Source of the DNA: an uncultured Pelagibacteraceae bacterium
GTDB lineage: Bacteria > Pseudomonadota > Alphaproteobacteria > Pelagibacterales > Pelagibacteraceae
Direction: 5' to 3'
Assembly: GCA_902540235.1 (NCBI GenBank)
Contig: CACBLI010000008.1
Span: 13,135 to 77,134, forward strand
DNA: 64,000 nucleotides
Part shown: one piece after another, positions 23,440 to 32,137 of the stretch
How the letters are laid out: the number at the start of each line of letters is the position of its first letter
Position numbering within the stretch: the stretch's first letter is position 1
Notes under the pieces: model-generated
Told to the model about the DNA's origin: nothing
Databases searched by the model: none
Seen by the model: only the letters and a program-made list of their open reading frames with translations
Translations under genes and position numbers: made by a program

Positions 23440-24291
23440 ATGAAGGCCATAACTTTCAATCTTTTAGCATGGGTAATGCTTCCAATTATGGACGGATTTG
23501 CAAAATATTTGAGTACAGATCTTCCTGTTTTACAAATTACATGGGCAAGGTATTTTTTTACAGTTGCATTTACTCTTCCAATTATGTTTTTTTTTTTTAG
23601 AGCAAATCTTGTTTGGACAGATAAACCAAAATTACAAATTTTAAGAGGTCTAATTCTTTTAACAGCTAATATCTGTTTTTTTTATGCAATTTCAGTAATT
23701 TCTTTAGCAAAAGCATTAACTTTAGCTTTTGTTGCGCCTTTAATTGTTACAGCTTTTTCTCCAATTTTTTTAGGAGAAAAGGTTGGTTTTAGAAGATGGT
23801 CTGCAGTGATTATAGGTTTTATAGGTTCTTTGGTAGTTATAAGACCAGGTTTTGTTGAAATTAATTTAGCAAGTATAGCTGCACTCGGAACAGGAGTAAT
23901 GTATGGGTTTTATTTAATCATAACTCGGAAACTTAGTACTTCAGACAATCCTTTATTAACTTTATTGTTAACTGGCGTAGTAGGTGCCATAATTATATCC
24001 ATTGTTATGCCATTTGTGTGGGTTAAGCCTAACTTAAATCAGTGGTCTATGATGGCTGCGATAGGTATATTTGCGTGTATAGGCCATCTATTTTTAATAT
24101 TATCTCTTAAATATGCTGACGCCTCAAAATTGGCACCATTTAGCTACTTTGAGATCATTACAAATGTCATTATTGGCTATTATTTCTTTAATGATTTTCC
24201 TAATAATTGGACTTTCCTGGGTTTATTCATAATAATATTAAGTGGTATTTACATTTCAAGAAGAGAGAATTTAATTAGAAAAATTAAATAA
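23440..24291 (+). CDS. DMT superfamily (EamA-like) transporter
   Basis: 283 aa with 10 predicted TM segments and a duplicated EamA-like architecture. Confidence 0.7.
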   Translation: MKAITFNLLAWVMLPIMDGFAKYLSTDLPVLQITWARYFFTVAFTLPIMFFFFRANLVWTDKPKLQILRGLILLTANICFFYAISVISLAKALTLAFVAPLIVTAFSPIFLGEKVGFRRWSAVIIGFIGSLVVIRPGFVEINLASIAALGTGVMYGFYLIITRKLSTSDNPLLTLLLTGVVGAIIISIVMPFVWVKPNLNQWSMMAAIGIFACIGHLFLILSLKYADASKLAPFSYFEIITNVIIGYYFFNDFPNNWTFLGLFIIILSGIYISRRENLIRKIK

Positions 24292-24510: not shown

Positions 24511-24650
24511 ATTAAAATAGGGTAGTGCAAAACCATTGATATAGTTGAATAGTAGAGCGATGCACTAATTGAATATACCATTTAAACGGCTTTAGAGGGG
24601 TCTAATTTAAGCATAGGCTCATATATGCTACAACTATAGGGTGAATTACG
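24511..24650 (-). repeat. Three-motif 3' module, copy A (downstream of the MGMT gene)
   Basis: Plus-strand motifs are ATTAAAATAGGGTA (24511-24524), ATAGTTGA (24541-24548) and GTGAATTACG (24641-24650). The same order and orientation occur in copy B at 25223-25284. Confidence 0.5.
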
Positions 24651-24733
24651 ATATTAATAGAAAAATTAGGTAAAAATGCAAAAAAACGTTGATTTTACTA
24701 ACTTTTTTAACATAAAAAAGCTTTAAAATACGG

Positions 24734-25009
24734 CTAAATCGCAACTTTTTCAGATTTAAGTAACTTGAGTTTTTGTTTGATTCCACCTCTTCCAGAGTAG
24801 CCTCCAACAGCTCCATCTGATCTAATCACTCTATGACAAGGTATTTTTGGAGCATATGGGTTTTTAGCACATGCATTAGCCACAGCACGAGCTGATTTAG
24901 GGTTTTTAATACCAATAGCCACCTGTTTGTAGGTTTTTACCCTACCTTTTGGTATGGTTTTAATAAACTTCCAGACTTTTAGTTGAAATTTAGTGCCCTT
25001 AAGTATCAT
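24734..25009 (-). CDS. ogt: Stand-alone methylated-DNA--protein-cysteine methyltransferase (MGMT/Ogt C-terminal domain only)
   Basis: GTKFQLKVW...YKQVA...ARAVANACAKNPYAPKIPCHRVIRSDGAVGGY carries the PCHRV active-site cysteine. I place the start at the ATG at 25009 (91 aa), because the track start at 25093 adds 28 residues that run through a terminator-like hairpin and a GC-rich block. The gene looks noticeably more GC-rich than its neighbours. Confidence 0.8.
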   Translation of the reverse strand: MILKGTKFQLKVWKFIKTIPKGRVKTYKQVAIGIKNPKSARAVANACAKNPYAPKIPCHRVIRSDGAVGGYSGRGGIKQKLKLLKSEKVAI

Positions 25010-25014
25010 TTTTG

Positions 25015-25059
25015 AAAAAAACCCCTGTTTCCTTGCACTTTTAAAGGTGCAAAGAACAG
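25015..25059 (-). terminator. Terminator-like hairpin plus U7, 5 nt upstream of the MGMT start codon (possible attenuator)
   Basis: The minus strand reads CUGUUCUUUGCAC-cuuuaaaa-GUGCAAGGAAACAG, about 13 bp with one bulge. GGG and UUUUUUU follow, then CAAAA-AUG. Confidence 0.45.
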
Positions 25060-25200
25060 TTGTTTTGGCACGTCGTTGATGCGCTACCGCCATGCCTCCC
25101 GCCCCACATGTTCAGCGATGCTTTGTGAAGCTTTCTGCCCCCTGGAATTGTACCTCTCGGCTTTTGTCCAATTGGCCAGTTAAGAGTTGCCTCTTAATTC
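25060..25200 (-). promoter_or_regulatory. GC-rich candidate structured RNA (5' leader/riboswitch-like element or sRNA)
   Basis: I counted 48 of 80 nt as G+C in 25081-25160, against a roughly 30% background. The minus strand starts with a 7-bp hairpin capped by a GNRA tetraloop (UUAAGAG-GCAA-CUCUUAA, 25180-25197). I found no convincing ORF in any frame. Confidence 0.4.
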
Positions 25201-25222
25201 ATAATTAACTTAACAAAGTTAA

Positions 25223-25284
25223 ATTAAATAGGGTATCACTAAATAGTTGATTTTCTAAATTCTGGTACTTTTGTGTGAATTACG
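25223..25284 (-). repeat. Three-motif 3' module, copy B (downstream of the 69-aa membrane-protein gene)
   Basis: Plus-strand motifs are ATTAAATAGGGTA (25223-25235), ATAGTTGA (25243-25250) and GTGAATTACG (25275-25284), co-linear with copy A. An imperfect palindrome ACTTAAC-AAA-GTTAAAT lies next to it at 25208-25224. Confidence 0.5.
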
Positions 25285-25295
25285 GTGATAACTCT

Positions 25296-25505
25296 CTATT
25301 TAGTAAGCAAAATCAGGTAACTGGCTAAAAATATAATTGCCATAATAGATAAAAATATTGTGTTGAAACTTTTACCAGTATTTCGATATTGAATAATACT
25401 CAAAAAAATAAAACCTATTGAGCTTATTAAAAACCAAATTGCAGGAATTTCTCCATCAATCGAACCCATAATTTTGTAATTTAAACTATTGACATTAAAA
25501 ATCAC
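25296..25505 (-). CDS. Small hypothetical membrane protein (2 TM)
   Basis: 69-aa ORF with two hydrophobic helices (IPAIWFLISSIGFIFLSII and IFLSIMAIIFLASYLILL). Divergent from the recombinase gene. No recognisable family. Confidence 0.5.
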   Translation of the reverse strand: MIFNVNSLNYKIMGSIDGEIPAIWFLISSIGFIFLSIIQYRNTGKSFNTIFLSIMAIIFLASYLILLTK

Positions 25506-25516
25506 CTAATATATAA

Positions 25517-25543
25517 TTTCCGATAATTAATGGTTATCGGAAA
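25517..25543. promoter_or_regulatory. Perfect 10-bp inverted repeat with 7-nt spacer (TTTCCGATAA-TTAATGG-TTATCGGAAA)
   Basis: Read directly from the sequence. It lies in the 43-nt divergent spacer between the small membrane-protein gene and the recombinase gene and ends 5 nt before the recombinase ATG. Confidence 0.7.
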
Positions 25544-25548
25544 GTTAT

Positions 25549-26463
25549 ATGAATGATTTAATTAAAGATGTAAAAAACTTAGAATTAGAAACTTTAAAAA
25601 ATTTAAAGAATTCAAAAGCTCATAACACCTTGCGAGCTTATCAGGCAGATTTTAAAGATTTTACAGAGTTTTGTACAAAAAATGGTTTTAATTCATTACC
25701 AACTGATTCAAAAATAATAGCATTATATCTTACACACTTAAGCGCATTTAGTAAATTTAGCACTTTAAAAAGAAGATTAGCCTCAATAAAAGTAATTCAC
25801 AGATTAAAAGGGCATTATATCGATACAAAACATCCAATTATTGCTGAAAATTTAATGGGAATAAAAAGAAAGATGGGAGTTAAACAAATATCTAAAAAAC
25901 CATTATTAATCAATGATTTAAAATTGATTATTAATCTAATAGATAAAGAAAAAAATGAGTATAAGAAACATCAAAATCGAGCTTTATTGTTAATTGGATT
26001 TGCAGGCGGCTTTCGAAGATCAGAATTAGTATCGATTGAATATGAAGATATTGATTTCGTGAATGAAGGAGTAAAAATCTTGATAAGAAGGTCAAAGACG
26101 GACCAAACTGGATTAGGAATGATAAAGGCAATCCCCTACTTCGAAAATAAAATCTATTGTCCCGTTATATCTTTAAAAGCATGGATAAAACATGCCAAAA
26201 TTTACAACGGTAAAATATTCAATATATCCGACAAAACGGTAGCTTTAACAATTCAAAAATATGCACTATTAGCTGGTTTGGATAAAACAAAATACGCAGG
26301 TCATAGCTTAAGATCTGGATTTGCAACATCAACAGCTGAAATTGGTGCAGATGAAAGAAGCATTATGGCAATGACAGGTCATAAAACAACTCAAATGGTA
26401 AGAAGATATATACAAGAGGCAAATTTATTTAAAAATAATGCTTTAAATAAAATTAAAATATGA
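25549..26463 (+). CDS. Tyrosine-type site-specific recombinase/integrase (Cre-like subfamily)
   Basis: 304 aa. N-terminal SAM-like core-binding domain (TLRAYQADFKDFTEFC, ALYLTHL...STLKRRLASI). Catalytic domain has Arg I (GGFRRSEL), IRRSKTDQ, HSLRSG (H-x-x-R) and the GHKTTQMVRRY tyrosine motif. Confidence 0.88.
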   Translation: MNDLIKDVKNLELETLKNLKNSKAHNTLRAYQADFKDFTEFCTKNGFNSLPTDSKIIALYLTHLSAFSKFSTLKRRLASIKVIHRLKGHYIDTKHPIIAENLMGIKRKMGVKQISKKPLLINDLKLIINLIDKEKNEYKKHQNRALLLIGFAGGFRRSELVSIEYEDIDFVNEGVKILIRRSKTDQTGLGMIKAIPYFENKIYCPVISLKAWIKHAKIYNGKIFNISDKTVALTIQKYALLAGLDKTKYAGHSLRSGFATSTAEIGADERSIMAMTGHKTTQMVRRYIQEANLFKNNALNKIKI

Positions 26464-27287
26464 ACGAAATAACAATTGTAATTATTACTTATAAAAGTGG
26501 AAATATAATATATGATTTTATTAAGAAAATTCCTTCAACTATAAAAACAATAATAATAGATAATTCACAAGATTATGAATTAAAAAAAAATATTGAAGAA
26601 AATTATAAGAATATATCAGTATATTTAAAAGAAAATAACGGTGTCAGCTCAGCATTAAATTATGCAGTAGAAAAAATTAAAACTAAATATTTTTTACAAA
26701 TAAGTCCCGATCTTGAATTTAATTTTGAAAATTTAAATATTTTTCTTGATTTTGCTAAGAAAAAAAAAAATAATTTTGCTGCTTTAGGACCAAGATTTTT
26801 AGATGTGAAACAAAAAAGTCACAAACAAATTAATGAGAACTTAAAATTGGGTAAAATTGACTCCATTCATGGATCTTGCATGTTTGTAGATAAAGATATT
26901 TTTCTTAAAATTGGAAAATTTGATGAAAATTTTTTTTTATATTTTGAAGAAACCGAATATTGCTATAGAGCAAAAAAAAAAGGTTATCTTTCATATCAAA
27001 TTAATGACATAAAAGTTACAACTAAAGGTAGATCTGTTGATTTAGAAAGTGAAAGTTTTTCTAATATTCTTATATGGCATTTCATTTGGTCAAAATTTTA
27101 TTTTCACAAAAAAAAATACGGAAAATTATTATCATTGATAATCTTTTTACCTTTATTAGTAAGAATATTATTTAGAATAATCTTATATACAATTACTAAA
27201 AACGAAATATCAACAACAAAGTACAAAACAAGGTTTGATGGTTTATTAAAATCAATTAAAGGTCAAAAATCAGATTTAAGGCCTTAA
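26460..27287 (+). CDS. Family 2 glycosyltransferase
   Basis: 275 aa with ITIVIITYKS, IIIDNS and SPDLEF acidic motifs of GT2. Its ATGA start overlaps the recombinase stop. Confidence 0.75.
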   Translation: MNEITIVIITYKSGNIIYDFIKKIPSTIKTIIIDNSQDYELKKNIEENYKNISVYLKENNGVSSALNYAVEKIKTKYFLQISPDLEFNFENLNIFLDFAKKKKNNFAALGPRFLDVKQKSHKQINENLKLGKIDSIHGSCMFVDKDIFLKIGKFDENFFLYFEETEYCYRAKKKGYLSYQINDIKVTTKGRSVDLESESFSNILIWHFIWSKFYFHKKKYGKLLSLIIFLPLLVRILFRIILYTITKNEISTTKYKTRFDGLLKSIKGQKSDLRP

Positions 27288-27292
27288 TTGGC

Positions 27293-28585
27293 TTAATTAT
27301 ATAATCTAATTAGGGTAGGAAATTTTAAGATATTTTTATTGCTTTTAAAAATAGAAAGACATTTTTTTGCATTTATTTCCTTAGTTTTATGAGTAATTAT
27401 AATAATTCTTGCTTTTTTATTCTTTTTATCAGGTGTTTGAATTATTCGGTCAACTGAAATTTTAAATTTTGCAAGTCTGTTTGTAATGTTTGATAAAACA
27501 CCCTGTTTATCTTTAACTTCAAATCGAATATAAAGAGAATTAGTATAATTATCTATATCAAATGGTTTGATAACTTTTCTTTTTTTTGATGATATTCCAA
27601 AAGGAAATTTGATATTTCCTCTTAATATTGACATCAAATCTGACAATAAAGAAGATGACGTGGGCCCAGGTCCAGCACCCTCCCCTTGTAAAACACTTTG
27701 TCCTACAGGTTTGCCCTCTGTAATAACTGCATTCATTACACCATTGACATTGCCTATATAGGTTTTTTTGCTTACGAGACACGGGTGTACTGTCTCAAAT
27801 AATTTTCCATCAATTATTTCAGATATACCAAGTAACTTAACTCTTAAACCTAATTGATTTGCAATTTTTATATCCTCTAGCTTAATATTCTCTATACCTT
27901 CCATGATACATTTGTTTTTAGAAATTTTTCCATTAAATGAAAGTGCGGATAATATTCTTATTTTAGCAAATGCATCAAATCCATTTAGATCAAGTTTTGG
28001 GTTACCTGGTTCTGCAAAACCTAATTTTTGTGCTTTCTGTAACACTTTATCAAATGTCTGATTTGAACTTTCCATTTCAGATAAAATATAATTTGTAGTG
28101 CCATTTAAAATACCGTAAACTTTATTAATTTTATTGGTTGATAAGCCCTCTTTAATAGTTCTTAAGATTGGAATACCTCCAGCTACTGAAGCCTCAAATT
28201 CTAAATTGACTTTGTTTTTCTCTGCTAATTTTGCAAGATTATCTCCATGTTTTGAAATTAATGCTTTATTAGGAGTAATTACATGAACTTTATTACTTAA
28301 TGCTCTTTCAACTAATTTTTTAGATATACCGTCTGAATACCCTATACACTCAAATAAAATATCAATTTTTTCTTTTTCAAAAATTTTTAGAGGATTTCTG
28401 TAAAAAATTTTCTTTGAAATAGAAAAACGTCTCTTTTTCTTCCTATTTTTAGCAGAAATAGCCACAATTTTAATTTTCTTCCCTGTTTTTTTTTCAATCT
28501 CATTTTTTTTAAGATTTAATTCGTTATAAAGATAAATTCCTATTTGACCTAAACCAACTATAGCAATATTAATATTTTTTTTCAT
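27293..28585 (-). CDS. hom: Homoserine dehydrogenase
   Basis: 430 aa with an N-terminal Rossmann motif (IAIVGLGQIG), a homoserine dehydrogenase catalytic core (GILNGTTNYIL, PKLDLNGFDAFAKI) and a C-terminal ACT domain. Confidence 0.92.
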   Translation of the reverse strand: MKKNINIAIVGLGQIGIYLYNELNLKKNEIEKKTGKKIKIVAISAKNRKKKRRFSISKKIFYRNPLKIFEKEKIDILFECIGYSDGISKKLVERALSNKVHVITPNKALISKHGDNLAKLAEKNKVNLEFEASVAGGIPILRTIKEGLSTNKINKVYGILNGTTNYILSEMESSNQTFDKVLQKAQKLGFAEPGNPKLDLNGFDAFAKIRILSALSFNGKISKNKCIMEGIENIKLEDIKIANQLGLRVKLLGISEIIDGKLFETVHPCLVSKKTYIGNVNGVMNAVITEGKPVGQSVLQGEGAGPGPTSSSLLSDLMSILRGNIKFPFGISSKKRKVIKPFDIDNYTNSLYIRFEVKDKQGVLSNITNRLAKFKISVDRIIQTPDKKNKKARIIIITHKTKEINAKKCLSIFKSNKNILKFPTLIRLYN

Positions 28586-28586
28586 T

Positions 28587-28760
28587 TTAGTTATCTATAT
28601 TAGGATAAGGTTGGTTTTTTGCATATTCTTCTAATTTTTCTTTAAATTCCTCGAAAGTTAAATCATTTGAAAAATCTAAATTTTGAAAATTTTTTTGAGT
28701 TACGCCACTATTTGAAGAACAGCTTATTAAAAACAAAAAAATTACTAAATATCTATTCAT
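28587..28760 (-). CDS. Small putative lipoprotein (57 aa, below the ORF-track cutoff)
   Basis: My translation is MNRYLVIFLFLISCSSNSGVTQKNFQNLDFSNDLTFEEFKEKLEEYAKNQPYPNIDN. It has a signal peptide with lipobox LISC. Its ATG overlaps the argC stop (ATGA) and its stop lies 1 nt before the hom start. Confidence 0.55.
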   Translation of the reverse strand: MNRYLVIFLFLISCSSNSGVTQKNFQNLDFSNDLTFEEFKEKLEEYAKNQPYPNIDN

Positions 28761-29779
28761 CTTAAACCTTCATTTATATCAAAGTTTTTCAAAATATTCA
28801 TATTTTGAATAGCTTGTCCAGCCCCTCCTTTGATTAAATTATCAATGCAAGATAATATTATCGCTTTATCTTTATATTTTGATTTGCAAATTGATATTTT
28901 GCAATTATTTGTATTGATTACATCATTAGTACTTACAGATGAATTCAATTTGGCAATTTTTACAAATTTTTCTTTTTTGTAAAATTTTTTTAGTTCATTA
29001 AATAAATTATTAATCGTTTTTCCTCTTGCTAAATCTACATAAATTGTTGATAAAATTCCTCTAAACATTGGAGACAAATGAGGTGTAAAAGTAAATTTAA
29101 ATTTATTTTTTGTAAAATTTTTAATCATTTGTTCAATTTCAGAATTATGTCTATGAAATCCAACTCCATAAGCGCTTATTGACTCGTATAAGTTTTTATT
29201 TTTATGTTTTTTATGCACACTTCTTCCAGCGCCTGAATAACCAGATTTTGAGTCTATAATAATACTGTCTTTTATGATTAAATTTTTTTTAATTAGTGGA
29301 ATAATTGGTATTAAAATAGATGTTGGATAACAACCAGGACATCCAATTATTTTAAATTTTTTTATCTTGTCACCTGTTAATTCTGGTAACGAATAAATTG
29401 ATTTTTTGATTAATTTTGGTGCTTTATGTTTTTTTTTATACCATTTTAAATATGAGGATGCTTTATCAAGTCTAAAATCGGCAGCTAAATCTATTAAGAT
29501 ATTTTTTTTTAAAAGTTTTTTTGAAATTAATTGTGCTTCACCATTTGGAAGAGCAGTAAATATAATTTCAACATCTTTCAATAAATGTTCATTAAATTTA
29601 ATAATTTTTGGTAATTTTTTGTTTCTCAGTGATTTTTGATACAAAGAAATATCTTTACCTGCTGAACTATTACCACATAAATATTTTATATTAATTTTTT
29701 TATGCTTAATTAATAAATTTATAAGTTGAACACCTATATAACCTGTTGATCCAGCAATTAGTACATTTATCTTAGACAT
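28757..29779 (-). CDS. argC: N-acetyl-gamma-glutamyl-phosphate reductase
   Basis: ArgC pattern (VLIAGSTGYIGVQL, GCPGCYPTS active-site Cys). I start at MSKINV (29779), because the longer track ORF (to 29875) would overlap rpsI. Confidence 0.88.
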   Translation of the reverse strand: MSKINVLIAGSTGYIGVQLINLLIKHKKINIKYLCGNSSAGKDISLYQKSLRNKKLPKIIKFNEHLLKDVEIIFTALPNGEAQLISKKLLKKNILIDLAADFRLDKASSYLKWYKKKHKAPKLIKKSIYSLPELTGDKIKKFKIIGCPGCYPTSILIPIIPLIKKNLIIKDSIIIDSKSGYSGAGRSVHKKHKNKNLYESISAYGVGFHRHNSEIEQMIKNFTKNKFKFTFTPHLSPMFRGILSTIYVDLARGKTINNLFNELKKFYKKEKFVKIAKLNSSVSTNDVINTNNCKISICKSKYKDKAIILSCIDNLIKGGAGQAIQNMNILKNFDINEGLR

Positions 29780-29813
29780 TGAATATAATAACAGTTTAAA
29801 TAAAAAAAAAAAA

Positions 29814-30251
29814 TTATCTTTTAGAAAATTGAAAGCTTCTTCTTGCTTTTCTTCTACCGGGTTTTTTTCTTTCAACTGCTCTTGGATCCCTAGTAGTAAG
29901 GTTCTGAGTTTTTAAGGTGGTTTTTAGGTTTTCATCAAATAAAACTAAAGCTTTAGAAATACCATGAACCATAGCACCTGCTTGGCCAGTGTGACCGCCT
30001 CCACTTACACTGCATTTTACATCATAAGCAGTAGGTTGATTAATAATATCAAAAGGTCTTGTTATTTGCATTTTGTGATTTTCACTTACGAAATAATCAC
30101 TAAAGAGTTTACCATTAACATAGATCTTACCAGAGCCTTTTTTTAACCAAACCTTAGCAATGGAGGTTTTTCGTCTGCCTGTAGCATACTTACTATCTTT
30201 AAAATCCAATTTTAATTTTGACTTGTTATTATCTAACTGAGTATTTTCCAT
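29814..30251 (-). CDS. rpsI: 30S ribosomal protein S9
   Basis: 145 aa ending in ...GRRKARRSFQFSKR. Downstream of rplM, as in the conserved rplM-rpsI operon. Confidence 0.95.
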   Translation of the reverse strand: MENTQLDNNKSKLKLDFKDSKYATGRRKTSIAKVWLKKGSGKIYVNGKLFSDYFVSENHKMQITRPFDIINQPTAYDVKCSVSGGGHTGQAGAMVHGISKALVLFDENLKTTLKTQNLTTRDPRAVERKKPGRRKARRSFQFSKR

Positions 30252-30252
30252 G

Positions 30253-30711
30253 TTAGTTTCGCACCAAATTTTTATTATTTAATTTTGCTAATTCTATAAT
30301 TTTTGGATTTTGTGCGGTATGAGGGTGATCATTTCCAGAATAAATTTTTAATTTTGAAAGTTGTTTTTTTCCTAATACACCGCCTGGAAGCATTCTTTTA
30401 ACAGCTAGTTTCAGAGCTTCATCTGGTTTTTTTTCATAAAGTTTTTCAGGTGTAGTCACTTTAATTCCCCCAGGATATCCAGTGTGCCGATAATATTTTT
30501 TATCCTGAAATTTTTTTCCAGTAAATTTTGCATGTTCTATATTTTTCACAACTACAAAATCACCATTATCCATATGAGGTGTAAATGTAGTTTTGTTTTT
30601 TCCTCTTATAATCTTTGTAATAATAGCTGCTAATCGGCCAATCACAGCATTTTTAGCATCAATTTCATACCAATTATTATTGATTTGGTTTTTGTTAACA
30701 AATTTAGTCAT
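30253..30711 (-). CDS. rplM: 50S ribosomal protein L13
   Basis: 152 aa with an L13 pattern (WYEIDAKNAVIGRLA, HTGYPGG). 1-nt spacer to rpsI. Confidence 0.95.
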   Translation of the reverse strand: MTKFVNKNQINNNWYEIDAKNAVIGRLAAIITKIIRGKNKTTFTPHMDNGDFVVVKNIEHAKFTGKKFQDKKYYRHTGYPGGIKVTTPEKLYEKKPDEALKLAVKRMLPGGVLGKKQLSKLKIYSGNDHPHTAQNPKIIELAKLNNKNLVRN

Positions 30712-30721
30712 GATTGGCGCG

Positions 30722-30750
30722 ATTAATACTGATAAATGTCATATTGTCAA
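30722..30750 (-). promoter_or_regulatory. Candidate promoter for rplM-rpsI (TTGACA-N17-ATTAAT)
   Basis: On the minus strand there is a consensus -35 hexamer (30750-30745), a 17-nt spacer and a -10-like ATTAAT (30727-30722). It would give a leader of only a few nt. Confidence 0.3.
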
Positions 30751-30802
30751 TTTATATTAATATTGATACTTAACTATTAACATTTAAAAATAAGGATAAT
30801 TT

Positions 30803-32137
30803 ATGAAAGATAAAAAAAATAAAAGCACAGATGCTAAAACGTACAAATTTGATACATTAAGTCTACACGCCGGATATCAACCTCACAAAAATGCTGGGTC
30901 TAGACAAGTGCCAATTTACCAAACAACTTCATATTTATTTGATGACGTAGATCACGCTGCAGCACTATTTAATCTTGAAAGAGGTGGTCACATATATAGT
31001 CGAATATCGAACCCAACAGTTGCGGTTCTGGAAGAAAGAGTTGCATCACTTGAGGGTGGTACAGCAGCTTTAGCTACTTCTTCAGGGATGAGTGCAATAT
31101 TCCTAGCTGTAATGACATTGTGTGAGGCTGGAGATCATTTAGTTGTATCATCACAATTATATGGAGGTACAGTAAATCTTTTTAGACTAACCTTACCAAA
31201 ATTCGGAATAAAAACAACTTTTGTAAAACCAAGAGACACAGAAGGATTTAAAAAAGCAATACAAAAAAATACTAAAGGTATTTTTGGGGAGCTCGTTGGA
31301 AATCCTGGAAATGAATTGATGGATATGCCAGCAATAGCAAATATTGCTCATGAAGCAGGTATACCTTTAATGGTTGATGCAACATACCAAACACCCTACT
31401 TATGTCGACCAATTGAACACGGTGCAGATATTGTAGTTCACTCATTAACCAAATGGATGGCTGGTCATGGATCTTCAATGGCAGGAATAATTGTTGAAGG
31501 TGGAAAATTTGACTGGATGCAAAACGATAAGTTTCCTACAATGACACAACCTTACGAAGGTTATCATGGTTTATCTTTTGCTGAAGAGTTTGGACCAACT
31601 GCATTTACCATGAAAGCAAGAGCCGAAGGGATGAGAGATTTCGGACCTTGTTTAAGTCCTCAAAATGCTTGGAATGTTTTACAGGGTATTGAAACTTTAT
31701 CAGTAAGGATGCAAAAACATTGTGCTAATGCTGAAAAAATGGTCGAATATCTATTAGGACATGAAAGTGTTGCTTGGGTTTCACATCCGAGTGTCCCTGA
31801 TCATCCTGATCATGAACTAGCAAATAAATTATTACCAAATGGCAAAGGTTCAATGATAGCTTTTGGTATTAAAGGTGGTAAAGAAGCTGGTGAGGCTTTT
31901 ATTAATAATGTTAAATTAGCTTCTCATTTAGCAAATGTTGGTGACACAAGAACGCTTGTTATTCATCCTGCTTCAGCGACTCACTCTCAAATGGATGAGG
32001 CTACATTGAAGTTTGCAGGATTATCTCATGACATGATTAGACTTTCTGTTGGGATTGAAGATATTGATGATATCAAGAATGATTTTGAGAATGGATTTAG
32101 AGCTGCTAGAAAACCTAGGCTCGTATCCAATCAATGA
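30803..32137 (+). CDS. metY: O-acetylhomoserine sulfhydrylase (PLP-dependent)
   Basis: 444 aa of the Cys/Met-metabolism PLP family, with the PLP-lysine context SLTKWMAGHG and an MetY-like N-terminus (FDTLSLHAGYQP). Confidence 0.9.
   Translation: MKDKKNKSTDAKTYKFDTLSLHAGYQPHKNAGSRQVPIYQTTSYLFDDVDHAAALFNLERGGHIYSRISNPTVAVLEERVASLEGGTAALATSSGMSAIFLAVMTLCEAGDHLVVSSQLYGGTVNLFRLTLPKFGIKTTFVKPRDTEGFKKAIQKNTKGIFGELVGNPGNELMDMPAIANIAHEAGIPLMVDATYQTPYLCRPIEHGADIVVHSLTKWMAGHGSSMAGIIVEGGKFDWMQNDKFPTMTQPYEGYHGLSFAEEFGPTAFTMKARAEGMRDFGPCLSPQNAWNVLQGIETLSVRMQKHCANAEKMVEYLLGHESVAWVSHPSVPDHPDHELANKLLPNGKGSMIAFGIKGGKEAGEAFINNVKLASHLANVGDTRTLVIHPASATHSQMDEATLKFAGLSHDMIRLSVGIEDIDDIKNDFENGFRAARKPRLVSNQ

Follow-up and report, generated by a model that had tools for sequence, protein, structure and literature searches.

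Here, we analyzed a locus in a 64,000-nucleotide stretch of a contig from an uncultured Pelagibacteraceae bacterium (SAR11 group); this whole stretch is called the window. At the locus, a tyrosine recombinase gene is preceded by a short palindrome and stands divergent from a series of small genes. A previous reading made from the letters only (the sequence-only reading) had interpreted the arrangement as an integron-like cassette array, in which a Cre-like recombinase faces two small units that each end in the same three-motif module. Its description of the layout held: small units, all on the minus strand, form a co-oriented array that the recombinase faces across the palindrome, and the recombinase, the small membrane-protein open reading frame (ORF), and the 91-aa MGMT gene are all real according to the ORF list, Pfam, and NCBIfam. 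From the site outward, the array in the window consists of the small membrane-protein gene, the IMES-2 RNA gene, ogt/MGMT, and a conserved non-coding element, module A (Table 1). Our comparison across Pelagibacteraceae species leads to a different interpretation, in which the recombinase and the palindrome probably act as a dimer-resolution module of the chromosome.

Table 1. Features of the recombinase locus, with positions counted from the first letter of the window
Feature	Position	Strand	Basis or remark
EamA-family transporter gene	23440..24291	+	Pfam PF00892; conserved left flank, via tblastn in 62/80 species loci
Module A core, conserved non-coding element	24555..24650	-	66-locus alignment
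ogt/MGMT gene, 91 aa	24734..25009	-	PF01035, 2.2e-31; TIGR00589, 96 bits
Intrinsic terminator of IMES-2 (predicted)	25015..25059	-	Conserved in 44 loci
IMES-2 RNA gene, Rfam RF02035	25065..25204	-	cmscan, 139.6 bits
Module B, predicted 5′ regulatory region of IMES-2	25205..25295	-	Boxes conserved upstream of IMES-2, 44 loci
Small membrane-protein gene, "mp58" family	25296..25505	-	ORF list; first array unit
Recombinase promoter (predicted), sigma-70 consensus TTGACA-17-TATAAT	25489..25517	+	12/12 match
Candidate recombination site, attA/lox/dif type	25517..25543	.	TTTCCGATAA-TTAATGG-TTATCGGAAA, 10-7-10 palindrome
Tyrosine recombinase, 304 aa	25549..26463	+	PF00589 and PF02899
Family-2 glycosyltransferase	26460..27287	+	PF00535; variable right flank begins here

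The recombinase and its candidate site

The recombinase contains the complete R-K-H-R-H-Y catalytic set (R156, K183, H252, R255, H278, and Y287), and all six residues were invariant in 20 homologues. It was found in every one of the 80 Pelagibacteraceae species sampled, with identities of 70–97%, and was conserved about as well as the neighboring EamA and MGMT genes. The nearest solved relatives by sequence in a PDB search were XerD (3e-10) and XerA (1e-7); the protein aligns with XerD along its length, and the match to Cre was weak (6e-4) and covered the N-terminal part only. XerH was not among the PDB matches. Likewise, the XerD model was the best of the Xer equivalogs, at 74.5 bits against a cut-off of 329.6, and the scores of XerC, XerA, and XerS were also far under their cut-offs. 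An AlphaFold model built from a 20-sequence alignment had a mean predicted local distance difference test score (pLDDT) of 56.6, which was too poor for use.

Homologues were found on 1,855 plasmid records versus 6 phage records. Plasmid homologues reached 42% identity (1e-65), and a homologue on a Skermanella plasmid had 38% identity (5e-80). IntA of Rhizobium etli, a protein of 382 aa, matched the SAR11 protein with E = 6e-17 and 22% identity. These similarities suggest a large, mostly plasmid-borne recombinase family that would recognize sites of the form TCCGATAA-N6-8-TTATCGGA, with R. etli IntA, which has been characterized experimentally, and its attA/attD sites as the type example. In addition, a plasmid of Shewanella sp. 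ANA-3 (NC_008573.1, 10707–11714; our locus L221) encodes a 335-aa recombinase with 30% identity (4e-42) to the SAR11 protein. This gene lies 3.5 kb from SloxP, and its product is nearer to the SAR11 protein than is the SCre-like 371-aa protein of the same plasmid (23%).

The 10-7-10 palindrome noted by the sequence-only reading was confirmed at 25517–25543, five bases before the recombinase ATG. Its 25-bp core, TTCCGATAA-TTAATGG-TTATCGGAA, was found in 81 loci, 5–14 nt ahead of the recombinase ATG. The arms of the core were 100% conserved and the center TTAATGG was kept in 78 of the 81 loci, whereas the neighboring bases were just 50–80% conserved; the core thus stays constant while the recombinases diverge to 70% identity. 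No compensatory arm changes were found among the 81 loci, which, together with the conserved loop, argues for protein–DNA recognition rather than an RNA hairpin. The palindrome abuts or overlaps the −10 element and the 5′ untranslated region (UTR) of the recombinase gene, and the TTGACA element and a TATAAT or TATAGT −10 element are kept in the alignment of the window and its relatives. One site copy was present in each of the loci L001–L013, and each of 94 sequences (93 loci and the window) contained at most one full site. A search of the window and the 93 loci (1.28 Mb of flanks) for a second or degenerate palindrome with up to 1 mismatch per arm gave none, and isolated 9-mers occurred at roughly the chance rate.

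Similar sites accompany homologues of the recombinase elsewhere. IntA is a bidirectional tyrosine recombinase for which the 23-bp site alone suffices (PMC4928290). On plasmid p42a, attA (TCCGATAAGCAGTACTTATCGGA) lies 108 nt upstream of intA, and the SAR11 site and R. etli attA/attD have identical arms with a 7-bp center in each. A similar palindrome was present 70–880 nt upstream of the homologue gene in five of six inspected plasmid loci. The Skermanella plasmid carries a true 13-8-13 site (TAACTTCCGATAA-CGCCCCCT-TTATCGGAAGTTA) upstream of its homologue, and similar sites occur on Protochlamydia, Rickettsiales, and Alicyclobacillus plasmids. In IMG/VR, a pattern of the two arms separated by N7 gave more than 120 matches, mostly unrelated hairpins. 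When 80 contigs with the arms were examined for homologues, 12 also encoded one, and in most of these the site lay 3–74 nt upstream, with a different center in each lineage. Conserved arms around a variable center are what would be expected of recombinase-binding arms flanking a crossover region. The exact SAR11 25-mer was absent from 2.9 million IMG/VR contigs. SloxP was verified on the Shewanella ANA-3 plasmid at 100% identity, with arms GTCCGATAA, and the XerC-side arm of the canonical dif sites of Myxococcus and Anaeromyxobacter is the same as the arm of the SAR11 site.

Considering its conservation and the similar sites used by homologues, the palindrome is very probably the cognate recombination site of the recombinase; in this respect, the proposal that it stands where an integron would carry its site pointed to the right element. 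The hunch that the enzyme is Cre-like rather than IntI-like was also reasonable, in that the site resembles lox sites and attA. The module is similar to IntA/attA of R. etli CFN42 p42a in that a tyrosine recombinase has a simple, self-sufficient TCCGATAA-N7-TTATCGGA site upstream, whereas IntA is plasmid-borne and cointegrates two plasmids, and the SAR11 module is chromosomal, vertically conserved, and present in every sampled species. Cre/loxP, SCre/SloxP, and VCre/VloxP similarly have an inverted-repeat site with a short asymmetric spacer near the gene, but the SAR11 arms are 9–10 bp long with a 7-bp center, not 13-8-13. The natural role of Cre/loxP-type systems is replicon dimer resolution, as in phage P1.

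The gene array, IMES-2, and modules A and B

We surveyed the region between the recombinase and its site on one side and EamA on the other in 80 Pelagibacteraceae species representatives. Units were gained, lost, and reordered among relatives, with more than 20 architectures in the 80 species; thus, the locus is not invariant, and the variation expected by the sequence-only reading exists. The arrays are made of about ten gene families plus IMES-2, with all units co-oriented. For example, the order is mp54, IMES-2, mp58, MGMT in L047 and mp58, mp54, IMES-2, MGMT elsewhere. Presence or absence of IMES-2 changed at least 18 times on a 79-taxon recombinase tree, near the value for randomly assigned labels. 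On the opposite side, variability begins at the recombinase stop codon: the first right-hand gene past the recombinase belongs to 24 families among 74 species, including many glycosyltransferases and methyltransferases. A GIY-YIG gene together with a tRNA marks the end of this right-hand island in several genomes.

Among the protein-coding units, the mp58 family has 47 members across the loci. In the window, an ATG start at 25469 gives a protein of 57 aa and a GTG start at 25505 gives one of 69 aa; this protein had no match in Pfam or NCBIfam, and its assignment to DUF6356 was rejected because it showed no similarity to the 66-aa DUF6356 gene of HIMB1623. The ogt/MGMT gene encodes a stand-alone alkyltransferase domain with a PCHR active site, was found in 71 of 79 loci, and is usually the last gene of the array.

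The GC-rich stretch between the small membrane ORF and MGMT, which had been taken as spacer, is a full-length match to IMES-2 in Rfam (RF02035; 139.6 bits against a gathering score of 54.7, E = 7e-37, model positions 1–141), and IMES-2 stands at the same position in relatives. IMES-2 is a very abundant marine RNA. The RNA here is no different from the known motif; what is new is its context beside the recombinase site and upstream of ogt. The 83–100 nt on its 5′ side contain the same three elements in 44 genome loci, regardless of whether the preceding gene is mp58, mp54, mp157, p72, or none. Box 1 has the consensus TTATCCCCACTATTCACAG, and its variant in the window, GTTATCACCGTAATTCAC, is motif B1 of the sequence-only reading; box 2 has the consensus AAWTCAACnATnAAGTGATAC and includes motif B2; an extended −10 element (TGnTAnnnT) lies about 8 nt 5′ of the RNA. 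In the window, box 1 is GTTATCACCGTAATTCACAC (approximately 25273–25292, including B1), box 2 is AATCAACTATTTAGTGATAC (approximately 25234–25253, including B2), and the extended −10 consists of TG at 25214–25215 and TAAGTT at 25207–25212. On the 3′ side, a terminator is formed by the stem CTGTTCTTTGCAC, a loop, and GTGCAAGGAAACAG, followed by GGG and T7, and its stem shows compensatory changes across lineages (CTGAT..ATCAG; TTTGTGCC..GGTACAAG). These elements indicate that IMES-2 is a self-contained small RNA (sRNA) gene with its own putative boxes, extended −10, and terminator, and that module B is its predicted promoter region.

The T-run of the terminator ends 5 nt ahead of the MGMT ATG, which leaves no space for a promoter of ogt itself. 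The combination of IMES-2, a conserved terminator, and an ogt gene without promoter space fits a leader or attenuator layout as well as it fits a free sRNA; in L047, another small gene stands between the terminator and ogt/MGMT. Genomes lacking IMES-2 also lack module B; the indel has one end in the last codons of the small ORF and the other in the first codons of MGMT. We also examined IMES-2 contexts in JGI (Joint Genome Institute) metagenomes (loci L222–L341). On marine metagenome contigs, IMES-2 followed mnmA in 71 of 105 cases, with a convergent 353-aa gene downstream, and stood in the recombinase/ogt array in 24 of 105; the module B boxes were present upstream of it in both contexts. As a unit, IMES-2 spans about 285 nt and occurs as a discrete block in several contexts. 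The idea that IMES-2 is exclusive to the recombinase locus was rejected, as most metagenome copies follow mnmA.

Module A lies between the convergent EamA and ogt genes. On the minus strand, its core reads CACCCTWYAGTTGTAC...CCCCTCTATGGCCGTTTAAATGGTATATTC...TGCA..GCTC and is conserved in 66 loci, among them loci without MGMT. Motif A1 of the sequence-only reading overlaps the start of this core, and A2 and A3 (24511–24548) fall outside the deeply conserved part. Within the element are a DNA palindrome, CGTTTAAA(C/T)G, and a putative promoter, TTGTAC-18-TAAAAT. It had no match in Rfam at E ≤ 1, and a structured RNA was rejected because RNAalifold on 66 sequences and single-sequence folds gave weak results (z-scores of −2.0 and −0.7). 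Module A is a separate backbone element of the conserved flank.

All six occurrences of the three motifs that had been assigned to modules A and B were confirmed at the coordinates originally given. The motif ATAGGGT does recur in copy A, although it occupies 24636–24642 and does not start at 24635. Both CGTAATTCAC and TACCCTATTT occur twice in the whole 64 kb, in every case within this locus. Chance was assessed by comparing the best co-linear chain of exact matches of at least 8 nt with 5,000 dinucleotide-preserving shuffles. In the regions chosen by the sequence-only reading, the observed chain was equaled in 9 of 5,000 shuffles (p ~0.002); with IMES-2 excluded, it was reached in 34 of 5,000 (p ~0.007). 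Such a chain is unusual, but the regions were picked post hoc. When repeated in 43 further IMES-2-bearing loci of other species, the test was mostly non-significant. The shared words were confined to the closest relatives of the window (L014, L015, L016, L018, L082, and L087), and beyond this clade module A and box 1 have in common just the short word pair ATTCAC...AGTTGT. Thus, the similarity of A and B is clade-specific. The copies of a recombination module that defines cassette ends would be expected to co-vary in every genome; A and B do not, and hence are not such a module. Copy B, described as the 3′ end of the 69-aa unit, is instead the 5′ region of the IMES-2 gene and is missing wherever IMES-2 is missing; as a boundary it also fails in accompanying IMES-2 to the unrelated mnmA locus. 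Copy A, being part of the conserved flank and present also in loci without MGMT, is not a cassette end.

The remaining features of the locus likewise do not support a reading as integron cassettes. Over half of the ORF–ORF gaps in the arrays measured between −188 and +9 nt, and junctions that overlap or have 9 nt or less leave no room for attC-like sites. No motif common to the unit boundaries was found across the arrays, and a scan of the locus for attC-like or other repeats gave AT-rich chance pairs only. A gap of 65–69 nt between mp58 and mp54 in L049, L055, L057, L060, and L072 contains a small palindrome, AGATAA-GCGGCCTT-TTATCT, with inner arms (GATAA/TTATC) similar to the recombinase site; in L055 this palindrome is imperfect, and it may be a mere hairpin. 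In IntI, an extra domain of about 35 aa separates the catalytic lysine from the H-x-x-R motif, and the spacing between the catalytic lysine and histidine is about 106 aa. The spacing from K183 to H252 is 69 aa, as in XerD, and the recombinase therefore lacks the IntI insertion. It scored 33 bits against a cut-off of 265 with the NCBIfam integron-integrase model, over residues 225–282 only, and the IntI4 structure matched it over residues 230–284 only. SAR11 hypervariable regions have been reported to have no associated attC sites (Wilhelm et al. 2007).

The locus resembles integrons in that the recombinase is divergent from co-oriented short genes with scant promoter spacer, a recombination-type site lies between the recombinase and the array, and the array content varies among genomes. 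Unlike integrons, it has no IntI-specific insertion and no attC sites, its units abut or overlap, and one "cassette" is an RNA gene with its own predicted promoter and terminator. The geometry, with a palindrome between the gene and a divergent co-oriented array, is attI-like, but the site is of the attA/lox/dif type and capture of cassettes is not indicated. The locus is not an integron. The simplest account of the array variation involves deletion, insertion, and homologous exchange between conserved flanks and no recombination of cassettes.

Chromosomal position and proposed function of the recombinase

The module is chromosomal in Pelagibacteraceae and single in every flank examined. Among 46 loci with 6 kb or more on both sides, 84% of the pooled ORFs left of the site were on the plus strand and 69% of those right of it were on the minus strand; that is, genes converge on the site. 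This convergence was also seen in four loci with different left flanks (L040, L046, L061, and L091). In the window (27293–32137), the hom-argC-rpsI-rplM-metY block is on the minus strand to the right of the recombinase, and in HIMB1623 (L342, 1689–6692) it is on the plus strand to the left; the block is rearranged across the site with its genes still pointing towards the site. In HIMB1623, a SAM-V riboswitch precedes the metY-like gene (L342, 3020–3086), and none was found at the gathering threshold before the equivalent gene of the window (30803–32137). The cumulative skew of the window peaks at the locus. However, GC skew was rejected as evidence for a replication terminus: its sign change at the site is real, but GC skew at third codon positions (GC3) was approximately +0.05 to +0.09 on the coding strand on either side of the site and for genes on either strand (window and flanks of L014–L093). 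The skew thus reflects gene orientation, not replication direction, and gives no independent support for a terminus.

Single-recombinase dif/Xer systems consist of one recombinase genetically linked to one palindromic, AT-rich intergenic site, and Pelagibacter ubique HTCC1062 has been reported to lack a dif/Xer system (PMC2731167). In a complete SAR11 genome anchored at dnaA, the sole integrase was located at island 35 of 61 (PMC11796062). The SAR11 module shares the gene-plus-site layout of XerS/difSL, XerH/difH, and archaeal XerA/dif, and genes converge on its site. Furthermore, some canonical dif sites carry the arm of this site on their XerC side, and the best solved relatives of the protein are XerD and XerA, whereas the protein is under every Xer equivalog cut-off and the center is 7 bp, not 6.

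Taken together, we consider it fairly likely that the recombinase and its cognate site constitute a single-recombinase dif/Xer-like dimer-resolution module of SAR11, a function proposed here from comparative sequence data. Two recombinase dimers would bind the arms, and strands of two site copies would be exchanged across the 7-bp center. With a single copy on each chromosome, the enzyme would naturally act on the two sites of a chromosome dimer, and SAR11 would have in this module its functional equivalent of XerCD/dif, derived from the plasmid-type IntA/lox family. Because the promoter abuts the site, binding there would also regulate the recombinase gene, and the site-bound recombinase probably represses its own promoter.

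Several points weigh against dimer resolution. The similarity to Xer proteins is weak (74 bits versus an equivalog cut-off of 330), and the terminus position rests on gene orientation only. The integrase SAR11_0551 is listed inside hypervariable region 2 (HVR2) of HTCC1062 (Wilhelm 2007); should this be the orthologue, HTCC1062 would have its site away from the terminus. In addition, the documented role of IntA is plasmid cointegration, not dimer resolution, and highly variable DNA on both sides of the recombinase gene is compatible with a role in capture.

Since IntA-type enzymes both integrate and excise and the DNA to either side of the module is variable, capture stays a rival of dimer resolution. 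The site would then be a landing pad, an attC-less analogue of an integron, where the recombinase integrates circular DNA with a matching site and so builds the array, one of the two resulting sites decaying afterwards. Enzymes of the IntA family have already served as a landing-pad system (PMC4928290). All array units point the same way, divergent from the recombinase; variability looks greatest nearest the site, with MGMT and module A conserved at the distal end; and IMES-2, with its at least 18 changes on the recombinase tree, forms a discrete block in several contexts. However, the searches described above gave no second site with up to 1 mismatch per arm in the window or the 93 loci and no exact 25-mer in IMG/VR, many junctions are 9 nt or less or overlapping, the units have no boundary motif in common, and variability is strongest from the stop codon of the recombinase onward, in the flank opposite the site. 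We therefore regard this explanation as unlikely. A combination of the two, in which an IntA/Cre-like enzyme would resolve SAR11 dimers and also capture small circular DNAs that seed the IMES-2 array without attC, seems quite improbable.

We give equally little credence to the recombinase being a domesticated remnant of a plasmid or mobile element, with the palindrome serving only as an operator or 5′ UTR hairpin without a role in recombination. The family is mainly plasmid-borne, and the −10 element and the probable transcription start and ribosome-binding site of the gene all overlap with the palindrome. Nevertheless, the gene is present in all 80 species at 70–97% identity with six invariant catalytic residues, the palindrome has a conserved loop and no compensatory arm changes, and an intact catalytic tyrosine would be unnecessary in a pure regulator. 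Finally, the model of the sequence-only reading, an integron-like array of cassettes, each with a three-motif recombination module (A or B) at its end, is highly improbable: the motifs are co-linear in the window (p ~0.002–0.007) and the array geometry and between-genome variation are real, but B is apparently the IMES-2 promoter region that travels with IMES-2 even to the mnmA locus, the motifs are not common to A and B in most lineages, imperfect-palindrome attC features are absent, and the recombinase is not IntI.

Implications for SAR11

In the ocean, no bacterial group is more abundant than SAR11; its recombination rates are high, and it has been described as having no dif/Xer system for resolving chromosome dimers (PMC2731167). 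A single-copy recombinase in every sampled species, together with a conserved 25-bp site at which gene orientations converge, provides a concrete candidate for dimer resolution in this group. IMES-2 is also given a defined genomic home, in a variable array beside the site and upstream of the DNA-repair gene ogt, and the compact pair of a recombinase and a 25-bp target may be useful as a tool. The SAR11 module is a chromosomal, clade-wide member of the IntA/lox/dif-like class and a credible candidate for the missing dimer-resolution system. If this is true, a housekeeping function of the SAR11 chromosome would derive from a plasmid-type IntA/Cre-like module.

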